A stretch of DNA of 54,742 nt. It comes from a virus (Duplodnaviria; Caudoviricetes). The DNA lies in IMG/VR virus record IMGVR_UViG_3300037332_000228, positions 1-54,742 of that record; one strand, given 5' to 3'. Shown here in pieces: positions 11,801 through 42,165 of this stretch (positions within the stretch are counted from its first letter, which is position 1; each line of letters begins with the position of its first letter). Made by a program: the position numbers and the translations under genes. The notes below the pieces were generated by a model. It was not told where the DNA came from and did not search any database. It saw only the letters and a program-made list of their open reading frames with translations.

Positions 11801-11953
11801 GCGGTAATTGACGAACATGACAAGAACATGAAACTGGCGTTTGTAGATGGGTTCAACAGTGTGGAATCACGTTCGCTTCATGAGAATACAGTGGAATCAG
11901 CTTGGAAAGATTCCGAAACAAAATATAGACAGAAGGACCCATTAAATGAATAA
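8856..11953 (+). CDS. cluster of small hypothetical early genes (8856..9044, 9103..9285, 9344..9613, 9610..10275, 10272..10574, 10847..11014, 11263..11523, 11654..11953)
   Basis: Co-oriented, often overlapping ORFs with RBS; promoters TTGACT at 10786 and 11211. Confidence 0.55.
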
Positions 11954-12965
11954 AATTGGCATTACCATTGGTAAATTTATGCCGCTTCACCTCGGCCACG
12001 AGCTCTTAATTGAGTTTGGTTCTGCCATGATGGATGAGTTTTATGTTGTGGTGTCAGGCAGGGAAACAGATGAAATTCCACTCACCTTTAGATTTGAGTG
12101 GGTCGAGTCATTTGTCGAAAAGAGCAGACTGAAAAATGTAACTGTGGTATATCACGTGGATGAGTCACCAACTCCTATTGATGTCGACGAACATGGGACA
12201 GTGCTGGACATTGAGTTTCAACAATATTGGGTTACAGAGTTCAATAAGATTGCACCCAATGCAACCCACTTTGTTTCCAGTGATCGTTATGGTAAGGCCA
12301 TGGCTGATGTCATGAGAATTAAATGGCTTCCTGTTGATCCTGATCGAGAAACAGTGAACATTTCAGCAACCAAAATCAGAAACCAACCCGCCTTCAACTA
12401 TCAAATGATTTCTGATGTGGCCAAGCCTTATTTTCAGAAACGGATTGCCGTCATTGGCGCAGAGAGTACAGGAAAGTCCACTATTGTCAAATACTTGGCT
12501 GAACTGTTCAGCACATTAGCAGCACATGAATATGGTCGCACTGTTAGTGAAACACGGAACAGTTCCTTCAATGTAGACGACTTCCATCAGATCTATCAGG
12601 GACAGAGAGCATTGATTGAAAGTTCAGCATGTAAGGCAAATGACATAGTGTTTACTGACACCGAGGCATTCACCACATATCTGTTTGGTAAATTGTATCT
12701 TGGTATGGATTTCACAGAAATGTTTGACTATGCAGTGTATGAACAGCAAATTGATCTTTATATTATTCTTGCTCCAACTGTGCCATGGATTCAGGACGGG
12801 GACAGGATTCTTGACAAACAAACAGACCGAGAGAAATTTCATAATGGACTCGTAAACTTTGTTGAAGAGTATAACAAGCCACATGTAATCATCGACCAGA
12901 AGCATTGGAGTGATAGAACGTACATGTCTATTAACGCAGTTGAACGGTTGAGAGAACCAAACTAA
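11946..12965 (+). CDS. nadR: NadR-like NMN adenylyltransferase / ribosylnicotinamide kinase (no HTH)
   Basis: GKFMPLHLGH (HxGH), ISATKIR, Walker A GAESTGKST, EYGR and DTE motifs. Confidence 0.92.
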   Translation: MNKIGITIGKFMPLHLGHELLIEFGSAMMDEFYVVVSGRETDEIPLTFRFEWVESFVEKSRLKNVTVVYHVDESPTPIDVDEHGTVLDIEFQQYWVTEFNKIAPNATHFVSSDRYGKAMADVMRIKWLPVDPDRETVNISATKIRNQPAFNYQMISDVAKPYFQKRIAVIGAESTGKSTIVKYLAELFSTLAAHEYGRTVSETRNSSFNVDDFHQIYQGQRALIESSACKANDIVFTDTEAFTTYLFGKLYLGMDFTEMFDYAVYEQQIDLYIILAPTVPWIQDGDRILDKQTDREKFHNGLVNFVEEYNKPHVIIDQKHWSDRTYMSINAVERLREPN

Positions 12966-17623: not shown

Positions 17624-17644
17624 TTAACCAAAGGAGTTTTGGTA

Positions 17645-18658
17645 ATGACTAAAGAATTTGATACACTTGTAACGGTAATGAGGATGCAACCGTTCCACCT
17701 CGGTCACCAAGCAGTGATTGACGCTGCATTGAAAAATGCACATGAAGTAGTAGTGGTAATTGGATCCAGTTTCCAACCACGAACCACAAAAAACCCATTT
17801 ACATTTGAAGAACGCGAAGCCATGGTGCTTGCATGTTATCCTGATCAACCAGTCCGAGTGGTTGGTGTTCGGGACTATCCTTATGACGATAATGCTTGGG
17901 TGTCTGCTGTTCAATATGCAGTGGATTCGGTTAAGACTGGTACTCGAACAGGGTTGATTGGGCACTCCAAAGATTCAAGTTCATACTACTTGAAAATCTT
18001 TCCAAATTGGCGGAAACATGTGGAGGTTGAAAATTATCAGGGTATTAACGCAACTGATATCCGAGCAGATTTATTCTCCAATGGGATACACTTCATTGGT
18101 GGTGATTTGATGCCGACACCAGCCCTCAAATCCATGTCGATCTCGTTGTTGGAAGGAACATGGTGGTCTGAACTCAAAGAGGAATATACGCAGATTAAAG
18201 CATACCATGAGGAATGGCAAGTGGCACCAAAACCACCAACCTTTGTGACAACAGATGCAGTGATTGTACAATCTGCTCATGTATTGTTAATCAAGCGTGG
18301 TAACTTCCCGTTCAAAGGGTGTTGGGCATTGCCAGGTGGGTACCTCGAAAAAGACAAGACAATTGAGGGAAACATGATCAAAGAACTCAGAGAAGAAACG
18401 TGCATCAAACTTCCTGCCAAGGTTCTTAAAGGTTCCATCAAGTCAACTCAAGTGTTTGATCACCCTGAACGTGATCCCAGAGGTCGTACCGTTACACACG
18501 CCTTTTATATTGATCTTGGATTTCCAGATGAAAAACTGCCCCGTGTAAAGGGAGCAGACGATGCAGTCCACGCAGAATGGGTTCCTCTCAGCCAAGTATC
18601 AAGTGACAACATGGCGTTTGACCACTACTCTATTATTTCACACTTTGTAAAAATTTGA
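17645..18658 (+). CDS. bifunctional NMN adenylyltransferase / Nudix hydrolase (NadM-Nudix, NatV-like)
   Basis: RMQPFHLGH, NPFT..ER, NATDIR; Nudix box WALPGG...ELREET; RDPRGR and FDH motifs. Confidence 0.93.
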   Translation: MTKEFDTLVTVMRMQPFHLGHQAVIDAALKNAHEVVVVIGSSFQPRTTKNPFTFEEREAMVLACYPDQPVRVVGVRDYPYDDNAWVSAVQYAVDSVKTGTRTGLIGHSKDSSSYYLKIFPNWRKHVEVENYQGINATDIRADLFSNGIHFIGGDLMPTPALKSMSISLLEGTWWSELKEEYTQIKAYHEEWQVAPKPPTFVTTDAVIVQSAHVLLIKRGNFPFKGCWALPGGYLEKDKTIEGNMIKELREETCIKLPAKVLKGSIKSTQVFDHPERDPRGRTVTHAFYIDLGFPDEKLPRVKGADDAVHAEWVPLSQVSSDNMAFDHYSIISHFVKI

Positions 18659-18889: not shown

Positions 18890-20888
18890 ATGGAAAATTT
18901 AATCAAGGCACTACAGATGATTCAATCCAAGATGACAAAGGATGTTGCATTTCCAACATGTTGTGATCATGACGTACTCAGAGTATTTGCAGGAATTGAT
19001 CCTTCACACTTTACATTGGAAGAACTCGATCAATTGACAGACTGGGGATTCGATTGGGATGATGACGACGAATGTTTCGAGTCCAGCTGGTACGGGAGTT
19101 GCTGACATGCCATATGGTGATTATGATGGACCTGACAAACCAGACAAGGGATTGAAACATGGGAGTTGCAACCGAACACGGTGTCAGGACTCCCCAGCAA
19201 TACATTACAACCACGGATCATATGCATGGTATTGTACTGGGTGTATGCTTGAGATAAATGATGCGTGGGCAAGGGATAATTGGGCACGAAATTTTTCAGC
19301 CCATAATCATCCACAATTTGAAACAAATGAACAAATGATAGACCGCGGCGCATTGAGCGAGAAAACAAAAGGAAATTGAAATGACAACAGTGGGCGAACT
19401 CATTAAACGATTGGCAGACTTTGATCTGGGCATGCCTGTTTATTTTGAAACAGTCAATGATAACTCAGCAGAAATGAAATCAATTGACGACAATCTTTAT
19501 TCTGGCCATGGAAGATACCGTGGCGTTTACATTGAATTGGATGAGGGACAAAAATGAAACGAACAGTTAGAATTGCATTGAGAATGATTGGACTACCTTT
19601 GATTATATCTTTTCAGATGTTAGTGGCAGTGAGTACATTGATTTACATGTTAAAGGACTAAATCTTTGAAACCCCTGGGAAATTTTATTCCTCTACTGAT
19701 TGGCTCCGCGACGAGGTCCAAAATTTCAAACAGTTCTGGTGGTCGTTTTTCAAATGAACGTATATACGAAGTGGAATACGTGTCCAATGAAGGCGGCAAA
19801 TTTGGAGAGTATGTTGTTGCTGAAGACGAATGTGACGCCATGGATCTTGTGGCAAACAATTTTTACTTTATGTACATAGTATCTTGTGAATATATTCGAG
19901 CGGCCACAGATGAAGAAATCAGAATAGGAGAAGTATATGACTCTGCGTAAAATACCGCTCAAACCGCTGGAAAATGTATATGGTGACAAGCAATTCGATT
20001 ACAAATATGTTGATGCCATGAAACCTAGGCTGGTCAGACACCAAGAACTGCTTCGGATCGCACAGACTGGCCCGATCATTATCAATTGGGAGGGCTACTT
20101 TGTTTATACAAAAGATCTCAGAGAATTGGTCAAAATGAAGGCTTTGGTTATGAAACGCGACTACATATCAACCCGAAGGAAAATGAGCAAGTTGCACATT
20201 ACCGAACTGGGACAAACACTTTTAGGAGAAACAAAATGACAATCAATATTGAAATTTCAGGACATTCAGGCGTAGGAAAAACCACAGTGGCCGCCTATAT
20301 CAATCGAATCCTCAACGATCATGGCTTTGACGTAACGGTGACAGATGATGATAAGCAAGCGGTATTCGACTCAAAGGCCACTGACGAAGCACTGGCTCGA
20401 ATCACAACACAGCCTATTAAAATCACCTGCAAGCAATTGCCAAGAAACACACTGGATATGACAATATGAAAACATTACACAACAAAGGATGGCTTCTTAA
20501 AATCTCTTCATGGGAAAATGATGGAGATCATAAAAACACTGTTGAATTGGCAGCGAACAGTTCTGAAAAGGCAAAGCAGATGTTTGAATTTGCAAGTCTT
20601 TTTAAAGATACTGAAAGATCTAATCGTATCGGGAACATATATGAACCAGATGATCGAGATATTCAAAATATCTTGCGAGTAGCAAATGCCTTTATTGTAA
20701 AATACCCCGGGTTCATCGAAACCCAAGACGGAGACGACGATGAACTGATTGTAGAATGTTTCATCGAAACAGCATATGACTACGGCCTTACTAGAGGCGA
20801 GCAATATACTAGACTGTGTGAAACAGTAAAAGTTCTATATTTTCCAGAAGATGTACTTTATGAAGATGTAACAAAAGAATATCGTTGA
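18890..20888 (+). CDS. cluster of small hypothetical genes (incl. 18890..19105, ~19107..19379, 19937..20239, 20236..20469 with P-loop GHSGVGKT, 20466..20888)
   Basis: Co-oriented, overlapping start/stop codons with RBS. Confidence 0.55.
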
Positions 20889-20913
20889 CAAACAACATGA
20901 CATGTGTTATAAA
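20885..20913 (+). promoter_or_regulatory. sigma70-type promoter of NAMPT
   Basis: TTGACA-17-TATAAA. Confidence 0.65.
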
Positions 20914-20944
20914 TAACAATATCATTAACTAGAGGAGTTCTATA

Positions 20945-21721
20945 ATGAAAAATATTCTAAGCCTGCTTACTTCCATCATGCGTACCGATGGATACAAAAC
21001 TTCACAATTCTTACAATACCCAGCTGATACCCAATACATCAGCTCATATATTGAATCGCGCGGCGGCGCTGACACCAGTGTATTCTTTGGTCTACAAGCA
21101 TTCATCAAAGACTACATGCAAACCCCCATTACTCAATCTGATATCAACTTTGCAGAAGCAGTTTTTACAAAGTATGGTACTCCCTTCAACCGAGCGGGGT
21201 GGGAGATCATCGTCAACGAGTTTGATGGATATCTGCCACTGGAGATTGAAGCGGTTCCAGAAGGTACTGTGATGGCAACCAGAAACATCCAAGTTCAAGT
21301 TGTAAATACTGATCCCAGAATGGGATGGTTGACATCATATGTTGAGACTGCTCTGCTACGTGGGGTATGGTATCCTTCAACTGTGGCAACCAAGTCACGT
21401 GATATGAAGGTGATGATTGCACAAGCACTGTTCAAGTCCAGTGACATTCCAGTTGATATTCTAATGGGGCCTGTGTTGAATTTCACTCTCAATGATTTTG
21501 GTGCTCGTGGGGCAAGTTCAACAGAAACAGCCGTTCTTGGTGGGATGAGTCACCTTGTAAATTTCTGGGGCAGTGACACAATTGAGGGCATGATTGGCGC
21601 ACATGTTTACTACTCCGCTGATGTTACAGACATGTCTGCGTCTGTTGTAGCAGGGTCAATCCCTGCAAGTGAACACTCAATTTCTAGTTCATGGGCGACC
21701 GCTGCTCCGACGCCGGAATGA
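20945..21721 (+). CDS. nadV: nicotinamide phosphoribosyltransferase, N-terminal fragment
   Basis: TDGYK, FFGLQ, AVPEG, WYPSTVAT, DFGARG, GSDT and SIPASEHS motifs; stops 14 codons after the conserved His. Confidence 0.92.
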   Translation: MKNILSLLTSIMRTDGYKTSQFLQYPADTQYISSYIESRGGADTSVFFGLQAFIKDYMQTPITQSDINFAEAVFTKYGTPFNRAGWEIIVNEFDGYLPLEIEAVPEGTVMATRNIQVQVVNTDPRMGWLTSYVETALLRGVWYPSTVATKSRDMKVMIAQALFKSSDIPVDILMGPVLNFTLNDFGARGASSTETAVLGGMSHLVNFWGSDTIEGMIGAHVYYSADVTDMSASVVAGSIPASEHSISSSWATAAPTPE

Positions 21722-21730
21722 CTTAAGAAC

Positions 21731-21764
21731 ATAAATACATGCATAAAAGGAATTATGCATGTAT
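21731..21764 (+). promoter_or_regulatory. late-type promoter ATAAATA plus RBS/ATG-sequestering hairpin
   Basis: 12-bp inverted repeat ATACATGCATAA-aaggaa-TTATGCATGTAT covering the SD and ATG 21759. Confidence 0.75.
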
Positions 21765-23093
21765 TACACAATCTACAAGATAACAAACATAATGAACAAT
21801 AAAATTTATATAGGAAGACACAAAACCATGGACTTAGATGATGGCTATATGGGTTCAGGTACTCGAATCTGCGCTGCCATTAAAAAATATGGGGTTGATA
21901 ACTTCTTAAAGGAAATAATATTACAATGTGATAATTATAATGATATGATACTGCGTGAGTCTGAGATGGTGAACTCCGAGTTTGTGAAGTGCGATAGCAA
22001 TTACAACGTCATACCAGGTGGGGACGGATTTAATACTACCGGAATGGTGAGTGCAATATTGGTAGAAACTGGAGAAAATGTTTTTATTAGATCTGAAGAC
22101 TATCAAAAAAACAAGAATAAATATACCACTGCATCTTCTGGATTTGTCACGGTTTGGTGTGATATCAATGAAAAATATCATAGAATTACCACTTCTGAAT
22201 TTGACGGTGATATTCACCGTGCTATAGCCAAGGGCAGAACCTCGGTATGGAATTCTGAAAAGAATAGATTCCACAAAATCCCATCTTCTGATTACGACAG
22301 ACATATACATAGAACCCCATCAGATGGTTTCGTACGGGCGAGACGCATAGGAGAACCCCAATTTAGAAGTGTACCATGTCATGAATATAAAGAAAATAAA
22401 ACTCAATTTGAAACACCGTCCTCGGGCAAACGATCAGTGAAACATAAAGTAACTGGAGAGACATCTTCTATTGGCGTTCACGAATTCGACCAGTTTATAC
22501 ATGAAAGTGTATTCGGCGGAATCGTGGCAATGAAAAACGGAGTTCGACAATATGTAACAGCTGACGAATATTACAATGATAACAGTATGAAAGTAACTGC
22601 GTCTGGAAATGTGACAGCATATGATACAATTGAGAATAGAATAAGGCATGTTCCTTCAGAAGAATATAGACGCAATAAGTCTAGATATCTAGCAAACGGC
22701 AGTGGTACGGTTACAGTAATTGACAAGAAATCAAAAGAGCAGCTCACAATTACGACTGAAGAATTTCATAAAAACAAAGATCTTTATAACACTCCTTCTA
22801 CTGGCAAGAGAACAGTATGGTTGATAACTGATAAAGTATTTAAAAATATACTTAAAGAAGATTTTGACAGAAAATATCACGCATATGCGTCTGATAAACA
22901 TCTGATATGCACTGATGCTAGCGGTGAAGTTATCTTTGATTATTTTGGATCTAAAAGAGATTTTTGTGATTTATACCCGGAGTCATTATATAATGCGGCT
23001 AAAAAAAGTACAAAAATGTGGAAACCATATACAAGAGACAAACGACTAGAAATGTTTAATGGATGCAACTTCGAAAACAGAAAATGGAGATAA
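21759..23093 (+). mobile_element. free-standing GIY-YIG (Seg-like) homing endonuclease inside NAMPT
   Basis: YTIYKITN..NNKIYIG.H..DDGYMGSG...YN domain followed by about nine 31-33 aa degenerate repeats. Confidence 0.88.
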
Positions 23094-23094
23094 T

Positions 23095-23844
23095 ATGATT
23101 GAAGATAACCATAATGAAAAAGCGTATATTAAACATATGCTTACCCTATTAGGCCCGGGGAAAACAGTGGCCATTGTTGCAGATACATATGATGTGTATA
23201 ATTTTTGTAGATTAGTAGGGGAACTCAAGGTTCAAGTGATTGCATCCGGAGGCACTCTGGTTGTACGGCCAGACTCTGGTAATCCGGTTACTGTGCCAAT
23301 CGAAATCCTTGACATACTGTCAGAGCAGTTTGGCTATACAGTAAACAGCAAAGGGTTCAAGGTGTTAGCACAACGTGAAGATGGGTCCGCCATTGTGAAA
23401 GTCATCCAAGGTGATGGCCTTGATGTGGTCACCATGAAACAATTACTGGACAATGTGATTGAGGCTGGATACAGTGTGGAAAACATTGCGCTGGGCATGG
23501 GCGGCGGACTCTTGCAAAAAGTAGACCGTGACACTCTGAAATATGCCATGAAGGCTTCTGCCAGATGTGATTCAGATGGAGTGTGGCATGATGTATTCAA
23601 AGATCCTATTACTGATCCAGGTAAGACTTCCAAGAAAGGTCGGCTGGGACTGATCTACGAATGTGGAGTTGGTTCATGTGGTTACAGGACACTGCCCAAG
23701 AAATTTGCAGATGAAAAGAACAATCTGCTCCGTGAAGTATATCGCAATGGCAAATTGTTGATTGAAGATGACTTTGAAACGGTGCGAGTCCGCGGTGCAC
23801 TTGTTGAGTCCGAATATAATCCACAGATTTCTGAACGCTACTGA
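23095..23844 (+). CDS. nadV: nicotinamide phosphoribosyltransferase, C-terminal fragment
   Basis: Own GGAG RBS and ATG; VADTYD, VRPDSGNP, IQGDG, GMGGGLLQ, RDT and KDPITDPGK.SKKG motifs. Confidence 0.92.
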   Translation: MIEDNHNEKAYIKHMLTLLGPGKTVAIVADTYDVYNFCRLVGELKVQVIASGGTLVVRPDSGNPVTVPIEILDILSEQFGYTVNSKGFKVLAQREDGSAIVKVIQGDGLDVVTMKQLLDNVIEAGYSVENIALGMGGGLLQKVDRDTLKYAMKASARCDSDGVWHDVFKDPITDPGKTSKKGRLGLIYECGVGSCGYRTLPKKFADEKNNLLREVYRNGKLLIEDDFETVRVRGALVESEYNPQISERY

Positions 23845-23851
23845 ATCCAAA

Positions 23852-23881
23852 ATGGCCCAAATGGTTTTCTGTTTGGGCCAT
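23852..23881 (+). terminator. hairpin terminator
   Basis: ATGGCCCAAA...TTTGGGCCAT after the NAMPT-C stop. Confidence 0.6.
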
Positions 23882-24190
23882 CATGTCGGATGACATCACT
23901 AACAGCAAAGAAAACGGTAATTCAATGATAGCTACATTCCAACTAAAATTTGAAACTAGAATCCAGAGGTTTCTCTGGAAACTGGGACCCAAGAATAGAA
24001 AATACATTCTAAAATTATTTAGGGCATGGACACTGGAAGATGATTTATATGAAATCCTAGCTGAAGAAATACAAACTGAAATCAACAAAGAAATTATGGA
24101 AGTTTTGATGCGTGATCAATGATGTGCATTTGCTGACATCATACTCAATATTGGTAAATATGAACACACTCACATATCAGGATCAGCAGC

Positions 24191-24292
24191 ATGAGACTTT
24201 CAGAAATATCACAGATAAAATTCTACCACGGCAGCATGACAGAACTTGATGTTGGCACTGTGTTGAAACTGTTCGGACACGGACAAATCTGA
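24191..24292 (+). pseudogene. 33-aa remnant resembling the start of an ADP-ribosyltransferase-like (YHG) protein
   Basis: MRLSEISQIKFYHGSMTELDVGTVLK followed by an early stop; preceded by TAAATA and AGGA. Confidence 0.4.
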
Positions 24293-24342
24293 AAGAATCA
24301 GAATATAATCCACAACCAATTGAACGATTCTAAACAAAACCT

Positions 24343-24377
24343 AATAGTCCAAGTGGTCGTCTACTTGGACTATTTTT
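24343..24377 (+). terminator. intrinsic terminator
   Basis: AATAGTCCAAGT...ACTTGGACTATT followed by T-run. Confidence 0.8.
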
Positions 24378-24449
24378 GTGACAATAACAGTTGACATCAT
24401 GCTTTGTAGACTATAAAACTATATTAACAGCAACAAAGGAATATGTAAC

Positions 24450-25088
24450 ATGAAGATCGTAGCAACAAACAAAGATTTCAAAGTTGAGTTTAACCAGTCC
24501 TCAACATATTTCGTTACAGACAACAATGGAGATTGCTGGAAAACCTACAAGAGTGAAAAAGCCGCAATCAAATATATGGACAGTGTCGCATAACAGTTGC
24601 CAGTACAACGAAGGAAATTCAAATGGATCTCAAAACACTATTCAACGATGATGGCAATTTAAACTTCGACCCTAGGCGAGTGGGCCCAGACGATGCCCGG
24701 TATATGACACTGTTTGATGAAGAAGGTGCTTTGTTGTGTGGGATTGATCGTAAATTAAAAAAGCTTGTCAAGAACAACTCGTGGTCACCGTGGTGTGATG
24801 CAGTGGGGTTGGTCCATGCTGAACAGTTTTCGTGGGGCACCAAAGGAAAGTACACCACGATCTATTATTTTCGTTGATAATCAAAAGGTAAATGAAATGA
24901 ATGAATATGACCATGGTCGCAAAGATGTTCTTCTGGAACTGTTGACAAAGTTCAAGCCCTCACGTCCTGAACCCAGCGTGGATTGTAGCAACCCAGGTGA
25001 CATTGTGGATCATGCCACGTGGGCAAGTGACAACTATCACTATAATGCAATTCAAGATCTTCTTGACACCATGATGCGAACAGTGTAG
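24450..25088 (+). CDS. three small hypothetical proteins (24450..24593, 24623..24877, 24897..25088)
   Basis: AAGGA-type RBS; promoter TTGACA at 24391. Confidence 0.6.
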
Positions 25089-25300
25089 AACTATAATTAT
25101 GCATGTCCATAAAGTTCGTCGAACTCTACAGGTTTGCTAGTCGCTTCAATGAGGTTTGCCAAACGATTCCTTTGCAGGAACCATTCTGGTCTTATATCCT
25201 CTCCACGATTGTTGATGTCGGGTAATTCCTCCGACAATAGGCCATGAAAATTCTTCATGCCTTCTTTGTAAATGTTTTTGGCAGCATTTATGTCTCTGTC
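25089..25300 (-). ncRNA. putative omega/reRNA scaffold overlapping the tnpB 3' end (bounds approximate)
   Basis: Known position of TnpB omegaRNAs; minus-strand TTGAAGCG and terminal hairpin GTAGAGTTC-gac-GAACTTTAT. Confidence 0.55.
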
Positions 25301-26344
25301 ATGCTCAGTGTGGCAGGATGGACATGTCCAATCTCTTGTTCCAAGATCCAGCGCATCTAGCTTGTGACCACAACATGAACAGGTCTTGCTTGAGGCAAAG
25401 AACCTGTTCACTTTGCAAACTTCTTTGCCGTACCAATCAGCTTTGTATGCCATCATTCCAACTAAAGTCGACCACGAAACGTCTGCGATTGCCTTGCTGA
25501 GTTTCCTGTTTTTGATCATGTTTTTGACTGCAAGATCTTCAACGAAAATTGAATCGTAGTTGGTAACAACATAGTTACTGATCTGGTGATAATACCAGTT
25601 TCTCTGTCTGGTTATTTTCTCGTGTATTTTGGCAACTTTTAGCCGAGCCTGGTTGTATCTGTTGCTGCCTTTAGTCTTTCGTGACAAATGCTGTTGCATC
25701 TTCTTCAATTTCGCTTGAGTTTTGCGAAAATATTTTGGATTAGTAAATTTAGTGCCGTCAGATAGGATAGCAAGGTGGTTAATACCAAGATCAATCCCGA
25801 TATCCTTGCCTGTTTTAGGTTTTTCTTGTATTTCCTCACATACGAGAATCGATACATAATATTCGTTGGTTTTAGTCTTGGATAAGGTGACGCTTCTTAA
25901 CTCTCCAGTAAAAGTTCTGTCATAGACCACTTTAATTGGCGTCATCTTTGGGATCTTAATTGTACCTGCTTCGAAGTCTACTGCTTTGTTGTATGCCAGT
26001 GCTTGGCCAGGAATTCTCATCGAGTCTCTTGATACTCCCTTTTTCTTGAAATTTGGTCTGCCAGATTTTATCTTGCGTTTCTTGTTGAAAAACTGCTTGG
26101 TGGTTTCATAGAAGTCCATTCTTTTCTGTTGAATAGAATAGGAAATGCATTCCTTGAGCCAATCGTGTTCTGATTTCACATGAGCTTCCGACATATTTTT
26201 AACATGATCATCCGTGCCATAGTTGTTAAAGTTTGCAACCAACTGGTTCCAGACAAATCTTGCTGCACCGAAATTCCGATCGAGAGTACGTCTTTGATCA
26301 AAGGTCGGATAGATCCTGTATTTGTAGGCTTTATAAATAGACAT
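25097..26344 (-). mobile_element. tnpB: IS200/IS605-family TnpB RNA-guided nuclease, no adjacent TnpA
   Basis: KAYKYRIYP, GAARFVWN; RuvC GIDLG, VEDL and DRDINAA all intact; Zn finger CSCC..CPSC. Confidence 0.95.
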
Positions 26345-38171: not shown

Positions 38172-38805
38172 ATCAATATGGGTGATATCAGATACTCATT
38201 TCAATCATGCATCTATGCTAAAGTTTACTGATCGAACTACTAGGCAGATGATACGTGGTTGTAAATTTTCATCAGTTGAAGAAATGAACGAACACATGAT
38301 TGAACGCTGGAATTCAGTCGTCAAACAGGGCGATACTGTATATCACTTGGGAGATGTAGTCATGGGAGCCAATTCAGAAAATTGGATGAAACTCAATTGG
38401 GGTAGATTGAATGGCAGTAAGAGATTGATTGTGGGCAACCATGACGATGTCAAGATGCTTTCCACGGGAGGATGGTTCAAGAAAGTATCAATGTGGCGAA
38501 TGTTCCCAGAGTTTTCCTGTGTATTGACACATGCGCCAATTCATGCTAGTGGATTGCTCAAACAGCCCAGGGGATCAACTGCTGTTTGGCCAGACGATAC
38601 TGATGTTTTGATGAATGTTCATGGCCATATCCATCAAAACAAATCACCTCAGGGACCATATATGAATGTTTCTGTTGAAATGATTGATTATACTCCAGTG
38701 AATATGGAAGATATTGCAGTTATTGCTGGAAATTATGCAGAGAATTCTTGGCCAGTTGACAAATATAGAGTGCTTCCTGAAATGTTTTCAGTTGACAATG
38801 CATAA
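38164..38805 (+). CDS. calcineurin-like metallophosphoesterase
   Basis: SDTH, HLGDV, GNHD, HAP and HGHIH motifs. Confidence 0.9.
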   Translation: MSKSIWVISDTHFNHASMLKFTDRTTRQMIRGCKFSSVEEMNEHMIERWNSVVKQGDTVYHLGDVVMGANSENWMKLNWGRLNGSKRLIVGNHDDVKMLSTGGWFKKVSMWRMFPEFSCVLTHAPIHASGLLKQPRGSTAVWPDDTDVLMNVHGHIHQNKSPQGPYMNVSVEMIDYTPVNMEDIAVIAGNYAENSWPVDKYRVLPEMFSVDNA

Positions 38806-40209
38806 CTTACTTGTCTTTCTTTTATTATAATGTGTCATACCTGCCACAAAACCAGATGGAGGGCTTTCGGATTTTAATATTTTTATATTTGTTACGCCGT
38901 CAGTATAACATTTCTTCGGAAGAGTGGTTAATGTACGTCCCGGCCAAAATCCCGACGGGGGAGAATCATTCTCCCAAACCGTTTTATTAGTTATACCGTT
39001 AGTATATATTTTACGGTTACGTGATGGTAATTTACCTTTAATGAATCCATTGGGGACTGTGTCCCCAATGGATATCAATTTGTTAATCTTATTGTTGTTG
39101 TAATATGCTGTACGTTTGTTAACTTGGTACTTTAACTCCCCAGTATTCAGTCTAGTATCATCTGGATACACTAAAACGATATTACCATAATTATCTTCTG
39201 CTTTTTTCATACCACGCATCCATGGTACCAGTTCTCCTGAAATATATCTAATATCCATTTTATTGACGTAAAATTTATCATTATTTCGTCTATCCGAATA
39301 TTTCACTAACACAAGTCCAGACGTAATTCCCTTGAGCTCCCCAGATAGATATTTTTCGTCAGTTACTGAAACTCGTTGCGTTCTACCGTCTTTATCTTTT
39401 ACAACCACCATCCCGCTTGTGAATTGTTTGAACTCTCCACTAAGTATACGTGAGTCATACTTGGACACATAATGTGAGTGTCCTTTCGAATCGAATACGG
39501 TGTTCATTCCAGTGGTCACCCCAACTAGTTCCCCACTAATAAACCGATCGTCGTCTTTGTTAATTTGAAATGTATTTCCATCTTTATCTTTTACGGATAT
39601 TTTATTTGCCGAAAAGGATGTATACCCTAAATTTATTGCTTCTTCTCTAGTTGTATAGACATAGTTATCACTTGCGTCTAGGTACTGTGATTTGGTTTTG
39701 TTTAGACTTTCCAGCTCACCGGTATTCCATCTAATATCATGTACATCAAAAACTGAAGTTTCACCCGTCTCGATAATGCGCCCGGGTTTTTTCCCTTTAG
39801 TGGCACCTGTCAGTTTACCAGAAACATAATCTGGATTGGTTGTTGCAACTTGGAAAGTAAAGCCAAATGAGTCAATGACTGTTGCTTTTCCCGTATTGTC
39901 AAAAAATTTCCAGTCATTGTCATGGTTATTATAGAATTTATCATTCTGAGCCGCCTTGACTTTAGTTAAAAACTTCTTTTCATAGTCATATGTATCATTT
40001 GCAGTGTCAAAGATTTTAATTTTTCTAATCAAAAATGTTACTAAACCATGTGAATTAATTATCGATTTAATAACTTTGGAACTTGTCTGATACCCATTAA
40101 TAGTCATAAGTGTTGATGGTGTTGCTAATTTAGCCCATTGTGCGCCGGCATAATATATGCCGTTCCGTTTGTCCTGAATAATATAAAAATATGGCGAATA
40201 AATAGTCAT
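38788..40209 (-). mobile_element. free-standing GIY-YIG-like homing endonuclease
   Basis: PYFYIIQ..NGIYYAG, Y.TSS, E..FL..V.A..N..FYN; about eight 32-aa repeats ending SGEL plus three YTNG..N...P.GF..G repeats; antisense to neighbours. Confidence 0.8.
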
Positions 40210-40277
40210 GTTGGGATCCTTTTCTCCTAATGTAGTTGGGAAGATTTCCACAATTCCGCGAACTACGTTTATTTATT
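40210..40277 (-). promoter_or_regulatory. TAAATA late-type promoter and structured leader
   Basis: GTAGTT-CGC-GGAA-loop-TTCC-C-AACTAC on the minus strand. Confidence 0.65.
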
Positions 40278-40335: not shown

Positions 40336-42165
40336 ATGCTCGAAGAATTTAAGATACTATCACCAAGGGACCACGTACGACAACGAATGGGGTTGTATTT
40401 GGGATCAAGTTCCATGGAATCAGTAGAGAGATTCGTACGAGGAAAATGGGAAACAACCAAGTATGTGCCTGCCTTGAACAAAATAATTGATGAAATATTG
40501 GATAATTCAATTGACGAAGCCATACGAACTGAATTCAAGCATGCCAATAAAATTGACGTATCTATCTCAGGTGAATGGGTTACAGTTACTGATAATGGCC
40601 GAGGCATACCTCAGGACGAAATATATGACTCTGCTTCGGACGAGTATATCAAACGACCTGTTGCTGCATGGACTAGAGTAAATGCGGGTACCAGCTTCAC
40701 TGAGGACCGTGTTTCAATCGGTGCGAATGGAGTTGGATCGTCATGTGTGAATTTCGTAAGTTCTGAATTCCAAGGCGAAACATGGTGTAAAGGTACCATG
40801 GTGAAAGTTTATTGCACTGATGGTGGCCTTGAAGTCAAAGTCATTGAAATGCCCCGGTCAGGATCAGGTACCAAAGTATCATTTACTCCAGACTTTGAAT
40901 TGTTTGAAACTGATAGTCTTGTCAAACATGACATTTGGAATTTAGTCGAAGATCGCGTCATGAGTTTACAACTGGCATTTCCGGAAATTACATTCAGTTT
41001 AAATGGCAAACGAGTACAAGTGAATACTTTGAAAAAGTATTCAGAGTTGTTTAGAAACAATGAAAATGATTCTGTGGTCGTGGCACAAACTGACACGGTG
41101 TCATATTTCATTACTTCATCTGAGGATGGATTTAGAAGTAACAGTTTTGTAAATGGAGTTAATACTCGACAAGGTGGTACATATGTGGACTGGATGACAA
41201 ATTCCTTAGTGGATGAACTCACCAGCATGATCAAACGAAAATTCAAGATTGAAGTTACCAAGAGCACCATCAAGAGTGGCCTGACCTTTGTGCTGTTTTC
41301 CAGAAACTTTACAAATCCAAAGTTTGACAGTCAGACCAAAGAACGTTTGACTAACACGGTGGGAGCAGTCAAGGAGCATTATGAGTCATCCGGTGCCATG
41401 GACTTTGTGACAATGGGCCGCAAGATCATGGCATCCGAAGATATCATTGGCCCCATTGTGGAGGCACAACTTGCAAAGAAGTTGGCAGCAGATAAACGAG
41501 CAGCAACATTGGCTCAGAAGAAACTCAAGAAAGTCAAAGTGCCCAAGCATGTTGCTGCCAATGGCAAAAATGCCACATGTATGTTAGTCGAGGGGGATTC
41601 AGCTATTTCTTCATTTTTAGAAGTAAGAAACAAAGATATGTTGGGGGGCTATCCTCTTCGTGGCGTAGTGATGAACACATGGGATATGAAACCAGCCGAC
41701 GTACTAAAGAACAAAGAACTGAGTGAATTAGTGTCAGTATTAAATCTTGACATAACCCATCCAGACAGCTACAAAGACATGTCGTACCAAGACGTGGCAA
41801 TTTTTGCGGACCCAGATCATGATGGTGGCGGCCATATTTGTCCACTACTTATTGCATTCTTTTATAAATTCTGGCCTGGATTGATCCTGGATGGTAGGAT
41901 AAAGATAACTCGGACTCCGATTATGATATCCACTAATGGTAAGAACACAGAATGGTTTTACACTTACAATGATGCACAAGCATTCAAGGCAACATCAAAA
42001 GGATATAGTCACAGATACATCAAGGGACTGGCCAGTCTAGTCAATGATGAATATGAAAAAATAATTAATAATCCAATCAATGATGTAGTCAACATGGATG
42101 ATGCACAATGCTTTCAAATTATGTTTGGCAATGATCCAGAACTCAGGAAAGAATACCTAACATGA
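40336..42165 (+). CDS. DNA topoisomerase II large subunit (T4 gp39+gp60 fused)
   Basis: EILDNSIDE, DNGRGIP, GANGVG, FDSQTKERL, VEGDSA, PLRG, D.D.DG and YIKGL motifs. Confidence 0.95.
   Translation: MLEEFKILSPRDHVRQRMGLYLGSSSMESVERFVRGKWETTKYVPALNKIIDEILDNSIDEAIRTEFKHANKIDVSISGEWVTVTDNGRGIPQDEIYDSASDEYIKRPVAAWTRVNAGTSFTEDRVSIGANGVGSSCVNFVSSEFQGETWCKGTMVKVYCTDGGLEVKVIEMPRSGSGTKVSFTPDFELFETDSLVKHDIWNLVEDRVMSLQLAFPEITFSLNGKRVQVNTLKKYSELFRNNENDSVVVAQTDTVSYFITSSEDGFRSNSFVNGVNTRQGGTYVDWMTNSLVDELTSMIKRKFKIEVTKSTIKSGLTFVLFSRNFTNPKFDSQTKERLTNTVGAVKEHYESSGAMDFVTMGRKIMASEDIIGPIVEAQLAKKLAADKRAATLAQKKLKKVKVPKHVAANGKNATCMLVEGDSAISSFLEVRNKDMLGGYPLRGVVMNTWDMKPADVLKNKELSELVSVLNLDITHPDSYKDMSYQDVAIFADPDHDGGGHICPLLIAFFYKFWPGLILDGRIKITRTPIMISTNGKNTEWFYTYNDAQAFKATSKGYSHRYIKGLASLVNDEYEKIINNPINDVVNMDDAQCFQIMFGNDPELRKEYLT

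Follow-up and report, generated by a model that had tools for sequence, protein, structure and literature searches.

Several phage enzymes are encoded in pieces, and nrdA, gene 39/60, and gene 43, each split by a homing endonuclease gene (HEG), are described as yielding working enzymes (PMC2988022). In Aeromonas phage Aeh1, the free-standing endonuclease gene mobE lies in a critical conserved coding region of nrdA, a metabolic gene of a T4-like phage. The two halves are translated separately with no intron or intein, and related phages have an uninterrupted gene (PMC2988022). All of this is shared by the locus described here, which lies in a window (the whole 54,742-nt stretch of DNA that we analyzed) from a T4-like salt-lake phage. 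The likeness extends to the ribosome-binding site of mobE, which sits in a hairpin beside a late-promoter-like motif as in the window, and the same source describes hairpin and late-promoter control for both mobE and segB (PMC2988022). The earlier note had chosen an apt precedent. The two systems differ in that Aeh1 has an HNH endonuclease and an RNR target, whereas the window has a GIY-YIG/Seg-like endonuclease and a NAMPT target, and in that the activity of the split Aeh1 enzyme has been demonstrated (PMC2988022), whereas that of the split NAMPT is proposed here. In addition, unlike in Aeh1, the block inserted in the window carries donor-derived flanking coding sequence, and homologous endonucleases fill the same site in at least three NAMPT backbones. 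T4 gene 39/60 (with mobA) and gene 43A/43B of Aeromonas phage 25 (with seg43) likewise have a Seg or Mob gene between the reassembling halves of an essential enzyme, although these enzymes differ from NAMPT, and in the gene 43 split the role of the endonuclease as the cause is described as uncertain (PMC2988022). In the window, it is the insertion that made NAMPT split, because an intact sister allele exists at 94 to 98% identity.

In terms of pathway, a related system is NARP2 of Vibrio phage KVP40 (NadV/NatV), which, like the window, combines NAMPT and NMN adenylyltransferase in a large T4-like phage and is reported to counter NAD-depleting defense systems (bioRxiv 10.1101/2024.02.11.579819). 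The KVP40 Nampt, unlike that of the window, is described as one protein, and the main text of that report contains none of the words "split," "homing," and "interrupted" (bioRxiv 10.1101/2024.02.11.579819). Our literature search for a split NAMPT found no description, in line with the earlier note, which knew of none. A NAMPT split by a homing endonuclease is an addition to the known "genes-in-pieces" enzymes and, as far as we could find, is previously unreported for NAMPT.

The locus consists of three open reading frames (ORFs) on the + strand. NAMPT-N (20945 to 21721, 258 aa) encodes the N-terminal half, which covers the NAMPT_N domain and the first part of the catalytic barrel with the DFGARG motif and the EHS histidine motif, and it ends with SIPASEHSISSSW, an 8-residue tail without homology (ATAAPTPE), and TGA. 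After a 37-nt spacer (21722 to 21758) comes a free-standing GIY-YIG endonuclease gene of the SegB/SegE type (21759 to 23093, 444 aa), whose TAA stop (23091 to 23093) is followed by a single T and then by the ATG of NAMPT-C at 23095. NAMPT-C (23095 to 23844, 249 aa) encodes the C-terminal half, with the VADTYD, RPDSG, QGDG, and GMGGG motifs and the C-terminal extension of its clade. Its putative Shine-Dalgarno sequence, GGAG (23086 to 23089, + strand), lies 5 nt 5' of the ATG, within the 3' end of the endonuclease ORF. This is, base for base, the arrangement that had been read from the DNA in the earlier note: an NAMPT-N stop, a 37-nt spacer, a GIY-YIG ORF, and an NAMPT-C that starts 1 nt after the endonuclease stop behind its own GGAG. 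The three ORFs are in three frames (starts 2, 0, and 1 modulo 3), and the NAMPT halves are 1373 nt apart rather than forming a single polypeptide of ~460 to 500 aa. A gap of 1373 nt rules out translational bypass of the gene-60 type.

Both ORFs combined cover the NAMPT_N domain and the catalytic domain of the NAPRTase family. In Pfam, NAMPT-N matches NAMPT_N (PF18127; E 8e-21) and profile positions 1 to 59 of NAPRTase (PF04095), and NAMPT-C matches positions 73 to 238 of the latter (E 3e-29). When aligned to 7yqo, the solved Xanthomonas NAMPT, residues 10 to 251 of the N-half correspond to chain residues 21 to 250, and residues 10 to 233 of NAMPT-C, counted from the ATG at 23095, correspond to chain residues 257 to 476 (the same match reads as residues 22 to 245 if numbered from an ATG at 23059). 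This alignment, a check proposed in the earlier note, shows that both halves together span the complete fold, and it places the break ~7 residues past the EHS histidine, which we take to be the autophosphorylated residue of NAMPT, with no residue of the fold lost. At the break, ~8 residues of the N-half and ~4 of the C-half are unmatched. The cut tentatively falls in a short loop after the phospho-histidine (EHS) strand. An AlphaFold2 model of the intact relative L089 (mean pLDDT 76) has, near the break, a helix at 244 to 248, a loop at 249 to 251, and a helix at 252 to 266, a rough placement only, since the model is poor just ahead of the break (pLDDT <50 at residues 232 to 246, as also at 176 to 212). 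An alignment of 126 distinct intact NAMPTs, all single ORFs, has 140 columns with a conservation of at least 95%. The catalytic columns E243, H244, S245, D184 to G189, R308 to G312, and Q355 to G358 (L089 numbering) are kept, and the EHS, DFGxRG, RPDSG, and QGDG motifs are all retained, as had been claimed for both halves. Outside the inserted block, the changes at conserved columns are S16G, H77Y, H183N, R352K, and F383L, all common to intact L089, while the head of the C-half, which belongs to the block, alters 6 of its 10 such columns (N261K, M262H, S277A, S279T, A285F, and W290G).

Could the halves nonetheless be joined into a single-chain NAMPT? Many phage GIY-YIG endonucleases are intron-encoded, and environmental "fractured genes" are described that, like the window, have a gene in two parts with a free-standing endonuclease gene between them, flanked in their case by split inteins (PMC2677866). 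A group I or II intron containing the endonuclease ORF, or a (split) intein, would thus restore one polypeptide, but this is very improbable here. An Rfam scan of 20000 to 25000 on both strands gave 0 matches at E ≤ 1, and the 37 nt 5' and 1 nt 3' of the endonuclease ORF are too little for an intron core. In contrast to the fractured genes (PMC2677866), the window has at the break only ~8 extra N-side and ~4 extra C-side residues, much less than an intein half, and split inteins are ruled out on length. Moreover, the ORFs lie in three frames with intervening stop codons, and in each of the three lineages described below the C-half starts from an ATG and ribosome-binding site of its own. The statement of the earlier note that no group I/II core or intein is visible thus holds. 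These findings support a structural reading in which a free-standing GIY-YIG endonuclease, with neither intron nor intein, splits NAMPT into two separately translated ORFs.

The limits of the insertion are apparent from two near-identical metagenome relatives, L089 and L090, in which NAMPT is a single uninterrupted ORF of 499 aa. At the amino acid level, the N-half of the window is 98% identical to L089 and 94% to L090, and the distal C-half 96% (from ELKVQVI onward) and 94%, but the first ~42 residues of NAMPT-C are only 45% identical to L089. Nucleotide identity to L089 in 60-nt bins is 93 to 100% up to ~21672 and from ~23221, and ~40% or less in between, and the comparison with L090 gives limits that agree. 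The inserted or converted block therefore extends from 21673 to 23220 (+ strand), with 1548 nt replacing 148 nt of the uninterrupted allele. It runs from the divergent end codons and tail of the N-half through the spacer and the endonuclease gene to codon 42 of NAMPT-C. Its NAMPT-coding stretches (21673 to 21721 and 23095 to 23220) fall to ~40% identity to L089, and in a tblastn search among 191 loci the top non-self matches of the C-half head are two other split lineages. The flanking NAMPT sequence thus appears to have been co-converted with the endonuclease gene. A 13-nt match between the endonuclease stop/C-half start and internal codons of L089 is probably due to chance.

Both alleles occur in nature. 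In run X2, an independent salt-lake metagenome, a contig joins 21672 to 23221 via 148 other letters (depth 9.6), and the same run also has split-allele contigs (depth 6.6), so both alleles are present in one run. In runs X3, X4, and X5 (2017 to 2020), contigs bridge the split junctions with 0 to 1 differences. The runs found to contain this sequence included no RNA run. Two genetic backgrounds are found each with and without the insert: SASVVAG, which is split in the window and intact in L089, and STPVTAG, which is split in P0001, a 98%-identical split N-half on another contig, and intact in L110. Close relatives thus differ in the presence or absence of the insert at one precise site. These data also bear on the notion that the endonuclease gene came to lie within NAMPT through the assembly of a chimeric contig. 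As an IMG/VR record that derives from a metagenome and has an estimated completeness of 21%, the window invites such a doubt, but contigs of four other runs bridge the junctions with 0 to 2 differences, P0001 comes from a different contig, and the architecture is repeated in two other lineages; an assembly artefact is so improbable as to be practically negligible.

The endonuclease matches Pfam SegE_GIY-YIG (PF19835) with 25.5 bits against a cut-off of 25, its best stretch being residues 5 to 71, with no single stretch under the E-value limit by itself, and it matches phrog_314 "homing endonuclease" with E 1.8e-28. The closest named relatives of its first ~148 to 207 residues are SegB-annotated and other homing endonuclease genes (33 to 39% identity, E 1e-17 to 1e-23). 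It resembles T4 SegB and other Seg GIY-YIG endonucleases in being free-standing, with apparent intron-less homing and co-conversion of flanks, but it is longer (444 aa). A catalytic domain (residues 1 to ~100) is followed by ~6 to 9 tandem modules of ~30 aa, which also set it apart from the Seg proteins, and by a conserved FNGC..F...W tail. The three endonucleases found at this NAMPT site (window, L138, and L023) have in common the conserved motifs IY..TN, IY.G.H, GSGTR, E.E.VN, and YN...GG, which presumably map to the catalytic residues of I-TevI. None of 881 isolate phage records covers at least 80% of the 444 aa, a search by sequence against solved structures gave 0 matches at E ≤ 1, and a protein atlas search with residues 100 to 444 returned none at 0.9 or above and named no family. 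Two relatives of the endonuclease in isolates were inspected (Vibrio phages 2.275.O and Va1), and neither adjoins NAMPT.

Putative control signals precede the endonuclease gene. An RNA hairpin predicted by folding at 21734 to 21765 (+ strand), with a 13-bp stem and a 6-nt loop, holds an AAGGAA ribosome-binding site in the loop and the endonuclease ATG in the 3' arm. Its dG is −15 kcal/mol (z −5.2), a stability matched by 0 of 200 shuffles; when the 5' arm is removed, dG is −0.2 kcal/mol. The hairpin was also picked up by the scan for promoter- and terminator-like sites described below. A late-promoter-like CATAAATA at 21730 to 21737 (+ strand) matches 7 of 8 positions of TATAAATA, which we take to be the T4 late-promoter consensus, and similar motifs, CATAAATA and CTAAATAA, lie upstream of the endonuclease genes of L138 and L023. 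In the window, TATAAATA was observed 5 times, where 2.9 are expected and 16 of 100 shuffles attain as many, and CATAAATA was observed twice, where 3.9 are expected; because the motif is not enriched, we only infer late-promoter function at 21730 to 21737. Of the "late-type promoter and RBS hairpin" proposed earlier, the hairpin stands, while the promoter comes down to a motif match. The hairpin may sequester the ribosome-binding site and start codon, and the endonuclease might be under late-promoter/hairpin control. Just 5' of NAMPT-N, a promoter-like site at 20897 to 20925 (+ strand; ATGACA-17-TATCAT, a consensus match only, at 10 of 12 positions) overlaps TATAAATA at 20908 to 20915. It is a candidate start of one transcript over all three ORFs, and scanning 20945 to 23844 revealed no + strand terminator-like site at any ORF boundary.

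We wondered how widespread this architecture might be. Two more IMG/VR phage lineages (L137/138/139 and L023/026) have homologous full-length endonucleases at the same NAMPT codon, with 35% (L138; E 1e-72) and 30% (L023; E 3e-48) identity to that of the window over the full length. In all three lineages the start of the C-half, an ATG behind a ribosome-binding site (AAGGAG in L138, and AAGGAAA with an ATGA stop/start overlap in L023), falls on the same alignment position, and both halves are full-length ORFs in 3/3 of these DNA-verified cases. Three further putative N/C pairs (P0004+P0147, P0008+P0135, and P0121+P0156) were seen at the protein level only, matched to each other by the equal length of their contigs; all four loci matching P0004 in GTDB genomes are intact bacterial NAMPTs. 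The block-borne heads are 39 to 51% identical between the three lineages, the distal enzyme has a mean of 47 to 57%, and the endonucleases are at 30 to 46%. The heads share the substitutions S277A/G and A285F and the loss of W290, which are present in 7/7 split C-halves vs. at most 5/126 intact NAMPTs per position. The idea that these are an adaptation specific to the split is weakened, since the intact L131 and L122 carry the same head substitutions. Megablast with the region found nothing similar among 50,697 phage records, and in isolate phages tblastn with the halves found ~1,950 to 1,990 records with NAMPT, all below 60% identity. Three odd isolate rows were inspected: NAMPT is intact in RsoM2USA and DSS3P8, and in Klebsiella phage CPRSA it is broken into three CDS, apparently by frameshifts, as no endonuclease gene separates them. 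A second interruption site is suggested by 183-aa N-parts ending in DFGA, but 13/13 IMG/VR loci found with P0037 are uninterrupted (the ORF is nearly complete in 12, and one is ended by the contig edge).

Are the halves functional? Between the window and L089, dN/dS is 0.033 for the N-half (17 synonymous and 2 nonsynonymous changes) and 0.078 for the distal C-half (28 and 8), as compared to 0.087 and 0.131 between the intact L089 and L090. The insert looks recent, as the two parts compared differ from L089 at only 19 and 36 nucleotides, and these ratios therefore mostly reflect evolution before the split and are compatible with a recent loss of function. Predicted docking of the N- and C-halves gave an ipSAE of 0.92 vs. 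0.00 for the best control, with at least 95% of contacts agreeing between runs and a partner pLDDT of at least 92. Among solved complexes 58 of 80 attain this mark, as do 2 of 110 mismatched pairs, but a pass is expected for any cut single-chain fold, and the result very likely reflects similarity to solved single-chain NAMPT structures. The conserved columns, low dN/dS, recurrence, and docking prediction thus lend indirect support to the halves folding together in trans.

The main rival holds that the insertion inactivated NAMPT and left the two ORFs as a recently formed pair of pseudogenes, which are tolerated since many hosts can do without NAD salvage. A phage could bear the loss of an accessory gene such as NAMPT, and a selfish element would spread whatever the function of NAMPT. 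The recency of the insert, which makes dN/dS weak for the time after insertion, the six altered highly conserved columns in the C-half head, and an HEG-minus allele whose depth in run X2 is no lower than that of the split allele all fit such decay. We nevertheless consider it unlikely. In every DNA-verified lineage both halves are full-length and the C-half has an ATG and ribosome-binding site at the same position, and three more putative pairs exist at the protein level. The heads are about as conserved as the distal enzyme, which is unexpected for a decaying segment, and their substitutions also occur in uninterrupted NAMPTs. Finally, the split allele recurs with 0 to 1 differences in runs dated 2017 to 2020. 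Each piece appears to have its own translation signals and is conserved, and we think it likely that the locus encodes a functional two-piece NAMPT that arose by intron-less homing.

How might a two-piece NAMPT have arisen? We propose that NAMPT (NadV) in a T4-like phage was invaded by a free-standing GIY-YIG homing endonuclease gene through the repair of a double-strand break, along with a co-conversion tract from a divergent donor allele that would comprise NAMPT coding sequence on both sides, ~20 nt upstream and 126 nt downstream. The 1548-nt block would supply the stop of the N-half, the hairpin-controlled start of the endonuclease, and the Shine-Dalgarno sequence and ATG of the C-half, and given this stop, Shine-Dalgarno sequence, and ATG, NAMPT would therefore be made as two polypeptides. 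The halves would associate noncovalently into a normal NAMPT protomer and dimer. NMN adenylyltransferase acts after NAMPT in the pathway, and the window has two candidate genes for this step: a nicotinamide-nucleotide adenylyltransferase-type gene (11946 to 12965, + strand; phrog_3462, E 1.7e-74) and a Cytidyltransferase/NMNAT plus Nudix gene of the NadM-Nudix type (17639 to 18658, + strand; phrog_395, E 7e-73), which also matches phrog_1198 (Nudix; E 1e-16) and phrog_3462 (E 2e-6). Nampt and NMN adenylyltransferase are thus both encoded, as for an NAD+ reconstitution pathway of the NARP2 type, and the reassembled NAMPT would make NMN that feeds the phage's own adenylyltransferases. In mixed infections, the endonuclease would cut the uninterrupted allele, and the block would spread.

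A bolder reading, which we offer tentatively and hold to be somewhat improbable, is that the endonuclease moves as part of a self-contained "split-and-restart" cassette, which would endow whatever NAMPT it enters with a pre-adapted junction. Such a cassette would end the upstream half with a stop codon, restart translation of the downstream half with a ribosome-binding site and start codon, and bring its own version of the ~50 NAMPT codons that surround the break, with EHS-I/V-S upstream and VADTYD..FC..LG downstream, W290 being lost, as the codon signatures.

With this locus, NAMPT, the first enzyme of phage NAD+ salvage (NARP2), joins RNR, topoisomerase II, and DNA polymerase as an enzyme split by an HEG. 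Nature provides matched controls, namely an intact allele at 94 to 98% identity and a split allele, both in one sample, so direct tests of the homing site, of co-conversion, and of what the split costs are possible. The cut just after the phospho-histidine strand of the NAMPT fold points to a candidate permissive site that could serve split-enzyme design, and many of the half-length NAMPT ORFs seen in phage metagenomes are probably genuine two-piece genes, not fragments. If the cassette reading is true, it would add, beside introns and inteins, a third way for a homing endonuclease to be harmless, via protein-fragment complementation, and NAMPT, an anti-defense gene, would be a recurrent target in uncultured T4-like phages.

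The coordinates and details that the earlier note gave for a NAMPT gene split in two by an endonuclease gene proved correct when we re-read the sequence. NAMPT-N (20945-21721, 258 aa) ends in ...SIPASEHSISSSW plus eight unrelated residues, and a 37-nt spacer separates it from the endonuclease ORF (21759-23093, 444 aa, Pfam SegE_GIY-YIG), whose TAA is separated by a single base from the ATG of NAMPT-C at 23095 (running to 23844, 249 aa), with a GGAG five bases before this start. The three ORFs use three different frames. In Pfam, NAMPT-N matches the NAMPT_N domain and positions 1-59 of the NAPRTase profile, and NAMPT-C matches positions 73-238 of the latter; in the solved Xanthomonas NAMPT (7yqo), chain residues 21-250 are covered by the N-half and 257-476 by the C-half. 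Judging from these matches, no part of the NAMPT fold is absent across the two halves. The break lies about seven residues past the EHS histidine when aligned to 7yqo and, in the uninterrupted sister protein as modelled by AlphaFold2, it falls in a short loop (249-251) ahead of helix 252-266, with poor confidence just upstream.

That no intron core or intein is present, as previously claimed, was borne out. Scanning 20000-25000 by Rfam E-value gave no match at E ≤ 1, and the non-ORF sequence flanking the endonuclease gene amounts to 37 nt and 1 nt. Beyond what aligns with intact NAMPT, the new termini add only about 8 residues on the N side and 4 on the C side, which excludes split-intein halves as in the "fractured genes" of PMC2677866. 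An assembly artefact was likewise ruled out by contigs from four other public runs, which span and reproduce the junctions with 0-2 differences.

We scanned metagenomes for NAMPT relatives and recovered 24 loci. In two of these, L089 (on a contig of 9.6 kb) and L090 (208 kb), NAMPT is a single unbroken ORF of 499 aa, to which the window N-half is 98 and 94% identical at the amino acid level, respectively, and the distal C-half (the part beyond its first ~42 codons) 96 and 94%. At the nucleotide level, bins up to ~21672 and again from ~23221 are 93-100% identical to L089; in the intervening stretch, the NAMPT coding sequence on either side of the endonuclease gene cannot be aligned or is ~40% identical. 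As independent confirmation, in a public run holding both alleles, a contig (depth 9.6) joins 21672 to 23221 via 148 other letters, the split-allele contigs having a depth of 6.6. The L089 comparison and this contig together indicate that a 1548-nt block (21673-23220) has taken the place of 148 nt. This block takes in the end of the N-half (its final codons and tail), the spacer and the whole endonuclease gene, and extends over 42 codons into the C-half; it represents a co-conversion tract, as expected of intron-less homing. Since the "SASVVAG" background is split in the window and intact in L089, and the "STPVTAG" background is split in the database protein P0001 and intact in locus L110, the block appears to have been transferred between variants. 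About 850 nt downstream of its complete NAMPT gene, L089 also carries a second fragment of 48 residues matching the NAMPT C-terminus (L089:4401-4544, 67% identity).

The same split recurs. Among 191 loci there are three distinct split lineages (the window, L023 = L026, and L137 = L138 = L139), all broken at the same NAMPT codon, and the intervening ORFs of the other two are full-length homologues of the window endonuclease, with 35% identity in the L138 group (E 1e-72) and 30% in the L023 group (E 3e-48), these two groups being 46% identical to each other (E 4e-109). All three C-halves have their ribosome-binding site and ATG at one shared position of the alignment, and in L023 this start forms an ATGA overlap with the stop of the endonuclease gene. 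Long contigs represented in the protein database bear many further NAMPT ORFs of half length: 10 of the 22 N-type proteins examined end 5-23 residues past EHS, and at the protein level C-halves starting M(D/K)D.KN.. match N-types, with contigs of equal size.

Other short NAMPT ORFs have different junctions. Four N-parts of 183 aa (P0013, P0015, P0021 and P0037) all end ...FKLHDFGA, and five C-parts of 275-287 aa (P0133, P0142, P0158, P0163 and P0173) start MGHLVNF, MNFMGTDT or MGTDT, leaving ~13-20 conserved residues unaccounted for; these ORFs may point to a second interruption, perhaps by an intron, at a different active-site motif. P0002 and P0148, both on 44,068-bp contigs, end ...EHSTITSWGS and start MIDKFSAPGK, respectively, ~10 residues (RENEVKAYEN in relatives) being absent at a junction unlike that of the window. 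In Klebsiella phage CPRSA (L002, OM971648.1 24951-26191), the NAMPT annotation consists of three CDS in a row, uninterrupted by any other gene, which looks more like frameshift errors or decay than like a mobile insertion.

We also considered whether the NAMPT flanks, including the head of NAMPT-C (the first ~42 codons, carried by the block), belong to the mobile unit. Several observations favour shared flanks. The distal parts are closest to different intact genes: L089 for the window (96%), L171 for L138 (80%) and L032 for L023 (67%); for the database protein P0147, the nearest is P0156, a split half and its sister (90%), followed by intact L114 (81%). In the heads, S277 (L089 numbering) is replaced by A or G in 7/7 split versus 2/126 intact sequences, A285F occurs in 7/7 versus 1/126, and W290 is lost in 7/7 versus 5/126. 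By tblastn, the best matches of the window head among all loci are the two other split lineages, and 31 nt around EHSIS match L138 at 90%. Split-specific adaptation of the head is nevertheless countered by percent identity, the window head averaging 0.34 to split heads and 0.35 to intact ones, and by the uninterrupted loci L131 and L122, which carry the split-type signature (EHSVSTSYG ... AIVADTYDVYNFC..ILG). On these two grounds, we favour descent from a donor NAMPT clade as the reading of the signature over a proven adaptation to the split. L131, which at about 5001-5102 matches the window head at 82% over 39 nt, and L122 are candidate representatives of that clade, or alleles that lost the endonuclease.

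The spacer folds into a 13-bp hairpin (dG -15 kcal/mol, z -5.2), whose 5' arm overlaps CATAAATA and which hides both the ATG and the ribosome-binding site of the endonuclease gene. Of the late-type promoter proposed earlier, the motif match is present, but the window shows no enrichment of this motif. Comparable motifs occur in L138 and L023, where the hairpins are weaker (z -1.6). This arrangement resembles the hairpin-plus-late-promoter control of mobE, segB and I-TevI described in PMC2988022. After the GIY-YIG domain, endonuclease residues ~105-385 consist of tandem ~30-aa modules, for which Pfam and the PDB gave no match and which presumably form a modular region for DNA binding. Copy number varies: a self-trained HMM found six strong and three weak copies in the window endonuclease, more than in its homologues from L138 and L023.

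Matches by PHROG to RIIA and both topoisomerase II subunits mark the window, from a record estimated to be 21% complete, as part of a T4-like phage. At 3-9 kb upstream of NAMPT there are two genes of NMN-adenylyltransferase type, one at 11946-12965 (phrog_3462 and a thymidylate-kinase-like family) and one of NadM-Nudix type at 17639-18658, so the enzyme acting after NAMPT is encoded nearby, much like NadV/NatV (NARP2) of KVP40 in the main text of a preprint (10.1101/2024.02.11.579819). The two genes differ from each other. A TnpB/IS200-IS605 OrfB-like transposase ORF of 415 aa (25097-26344, minus strand; phrog_506, E 1.9e-117) lies 1.2 kb downstream of NAMPT-C. Farther on, the opposite strand carries a 487-aa ORF with an HNH endonuclease match (38788-40251, minus strand; phrog_12434, E 5.5e-22), immediately upstream of the gene (40336-42165) for the large subunit of topoisomerase II; it may be another mobile endonuclease beside a classic target gene.

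The mechanism is the same as for Aeh1 nrdA/mobE, T4 39/60/mobA and phage 25 gene 43/seg, as described in PMC2988022. In the accessible parts of the literature on NAMPT or NadV with homing endonucleases we found no report of a split NAMPT; the papers linking NadV and a homing endonuclease mention, in those parts, a split nrdD but not nadV, and the main text of the above preprint has no occurrence of "split," "homing" or "interrupted," although its supplementary tables could list such genes. The mechanism is thus already known, and NAMPT as the split target is new as far as this literature shows.

Is the two-piece enzyme functional? In favour, every window change outside the block in the 140 columns conserved at 95% or more is common to intact L089. 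The dN/dS values against L089 (0.033 and 0.078) are not higher than those between intact genes (0.087 and 0.131), and since the window insertion is young, selection since the split is barely measurable. The head segments of the three lineages are 39-51% identical, much like the enzyme's remainder, while the endonucleases have drifted to 30-46%, and runs from 2017-2020 again contain the split allele with hardly any change. In the docking check suggested by the earlier note, the halves are predicted to dock (ipSAE 0.92 versus 0.00 for the best control), with at least 95% of contacts agreeing between runs and a partner pLDDT of at least 92, at a mark reached by 58/80 solved complexes and 2/110 mismatched pairs; a resemblance to single-chain NAMPT structures is the probable source of this pass. 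Arguing against function would be the young insertion, the six conserved head columns changed in the window and the accessory nature of the gene.

Taken together, with a natural set of controls that is unusually complete, the split NAMPT is a real and well-supported case of a two-piece gene, whose enzyme activity is predicted.
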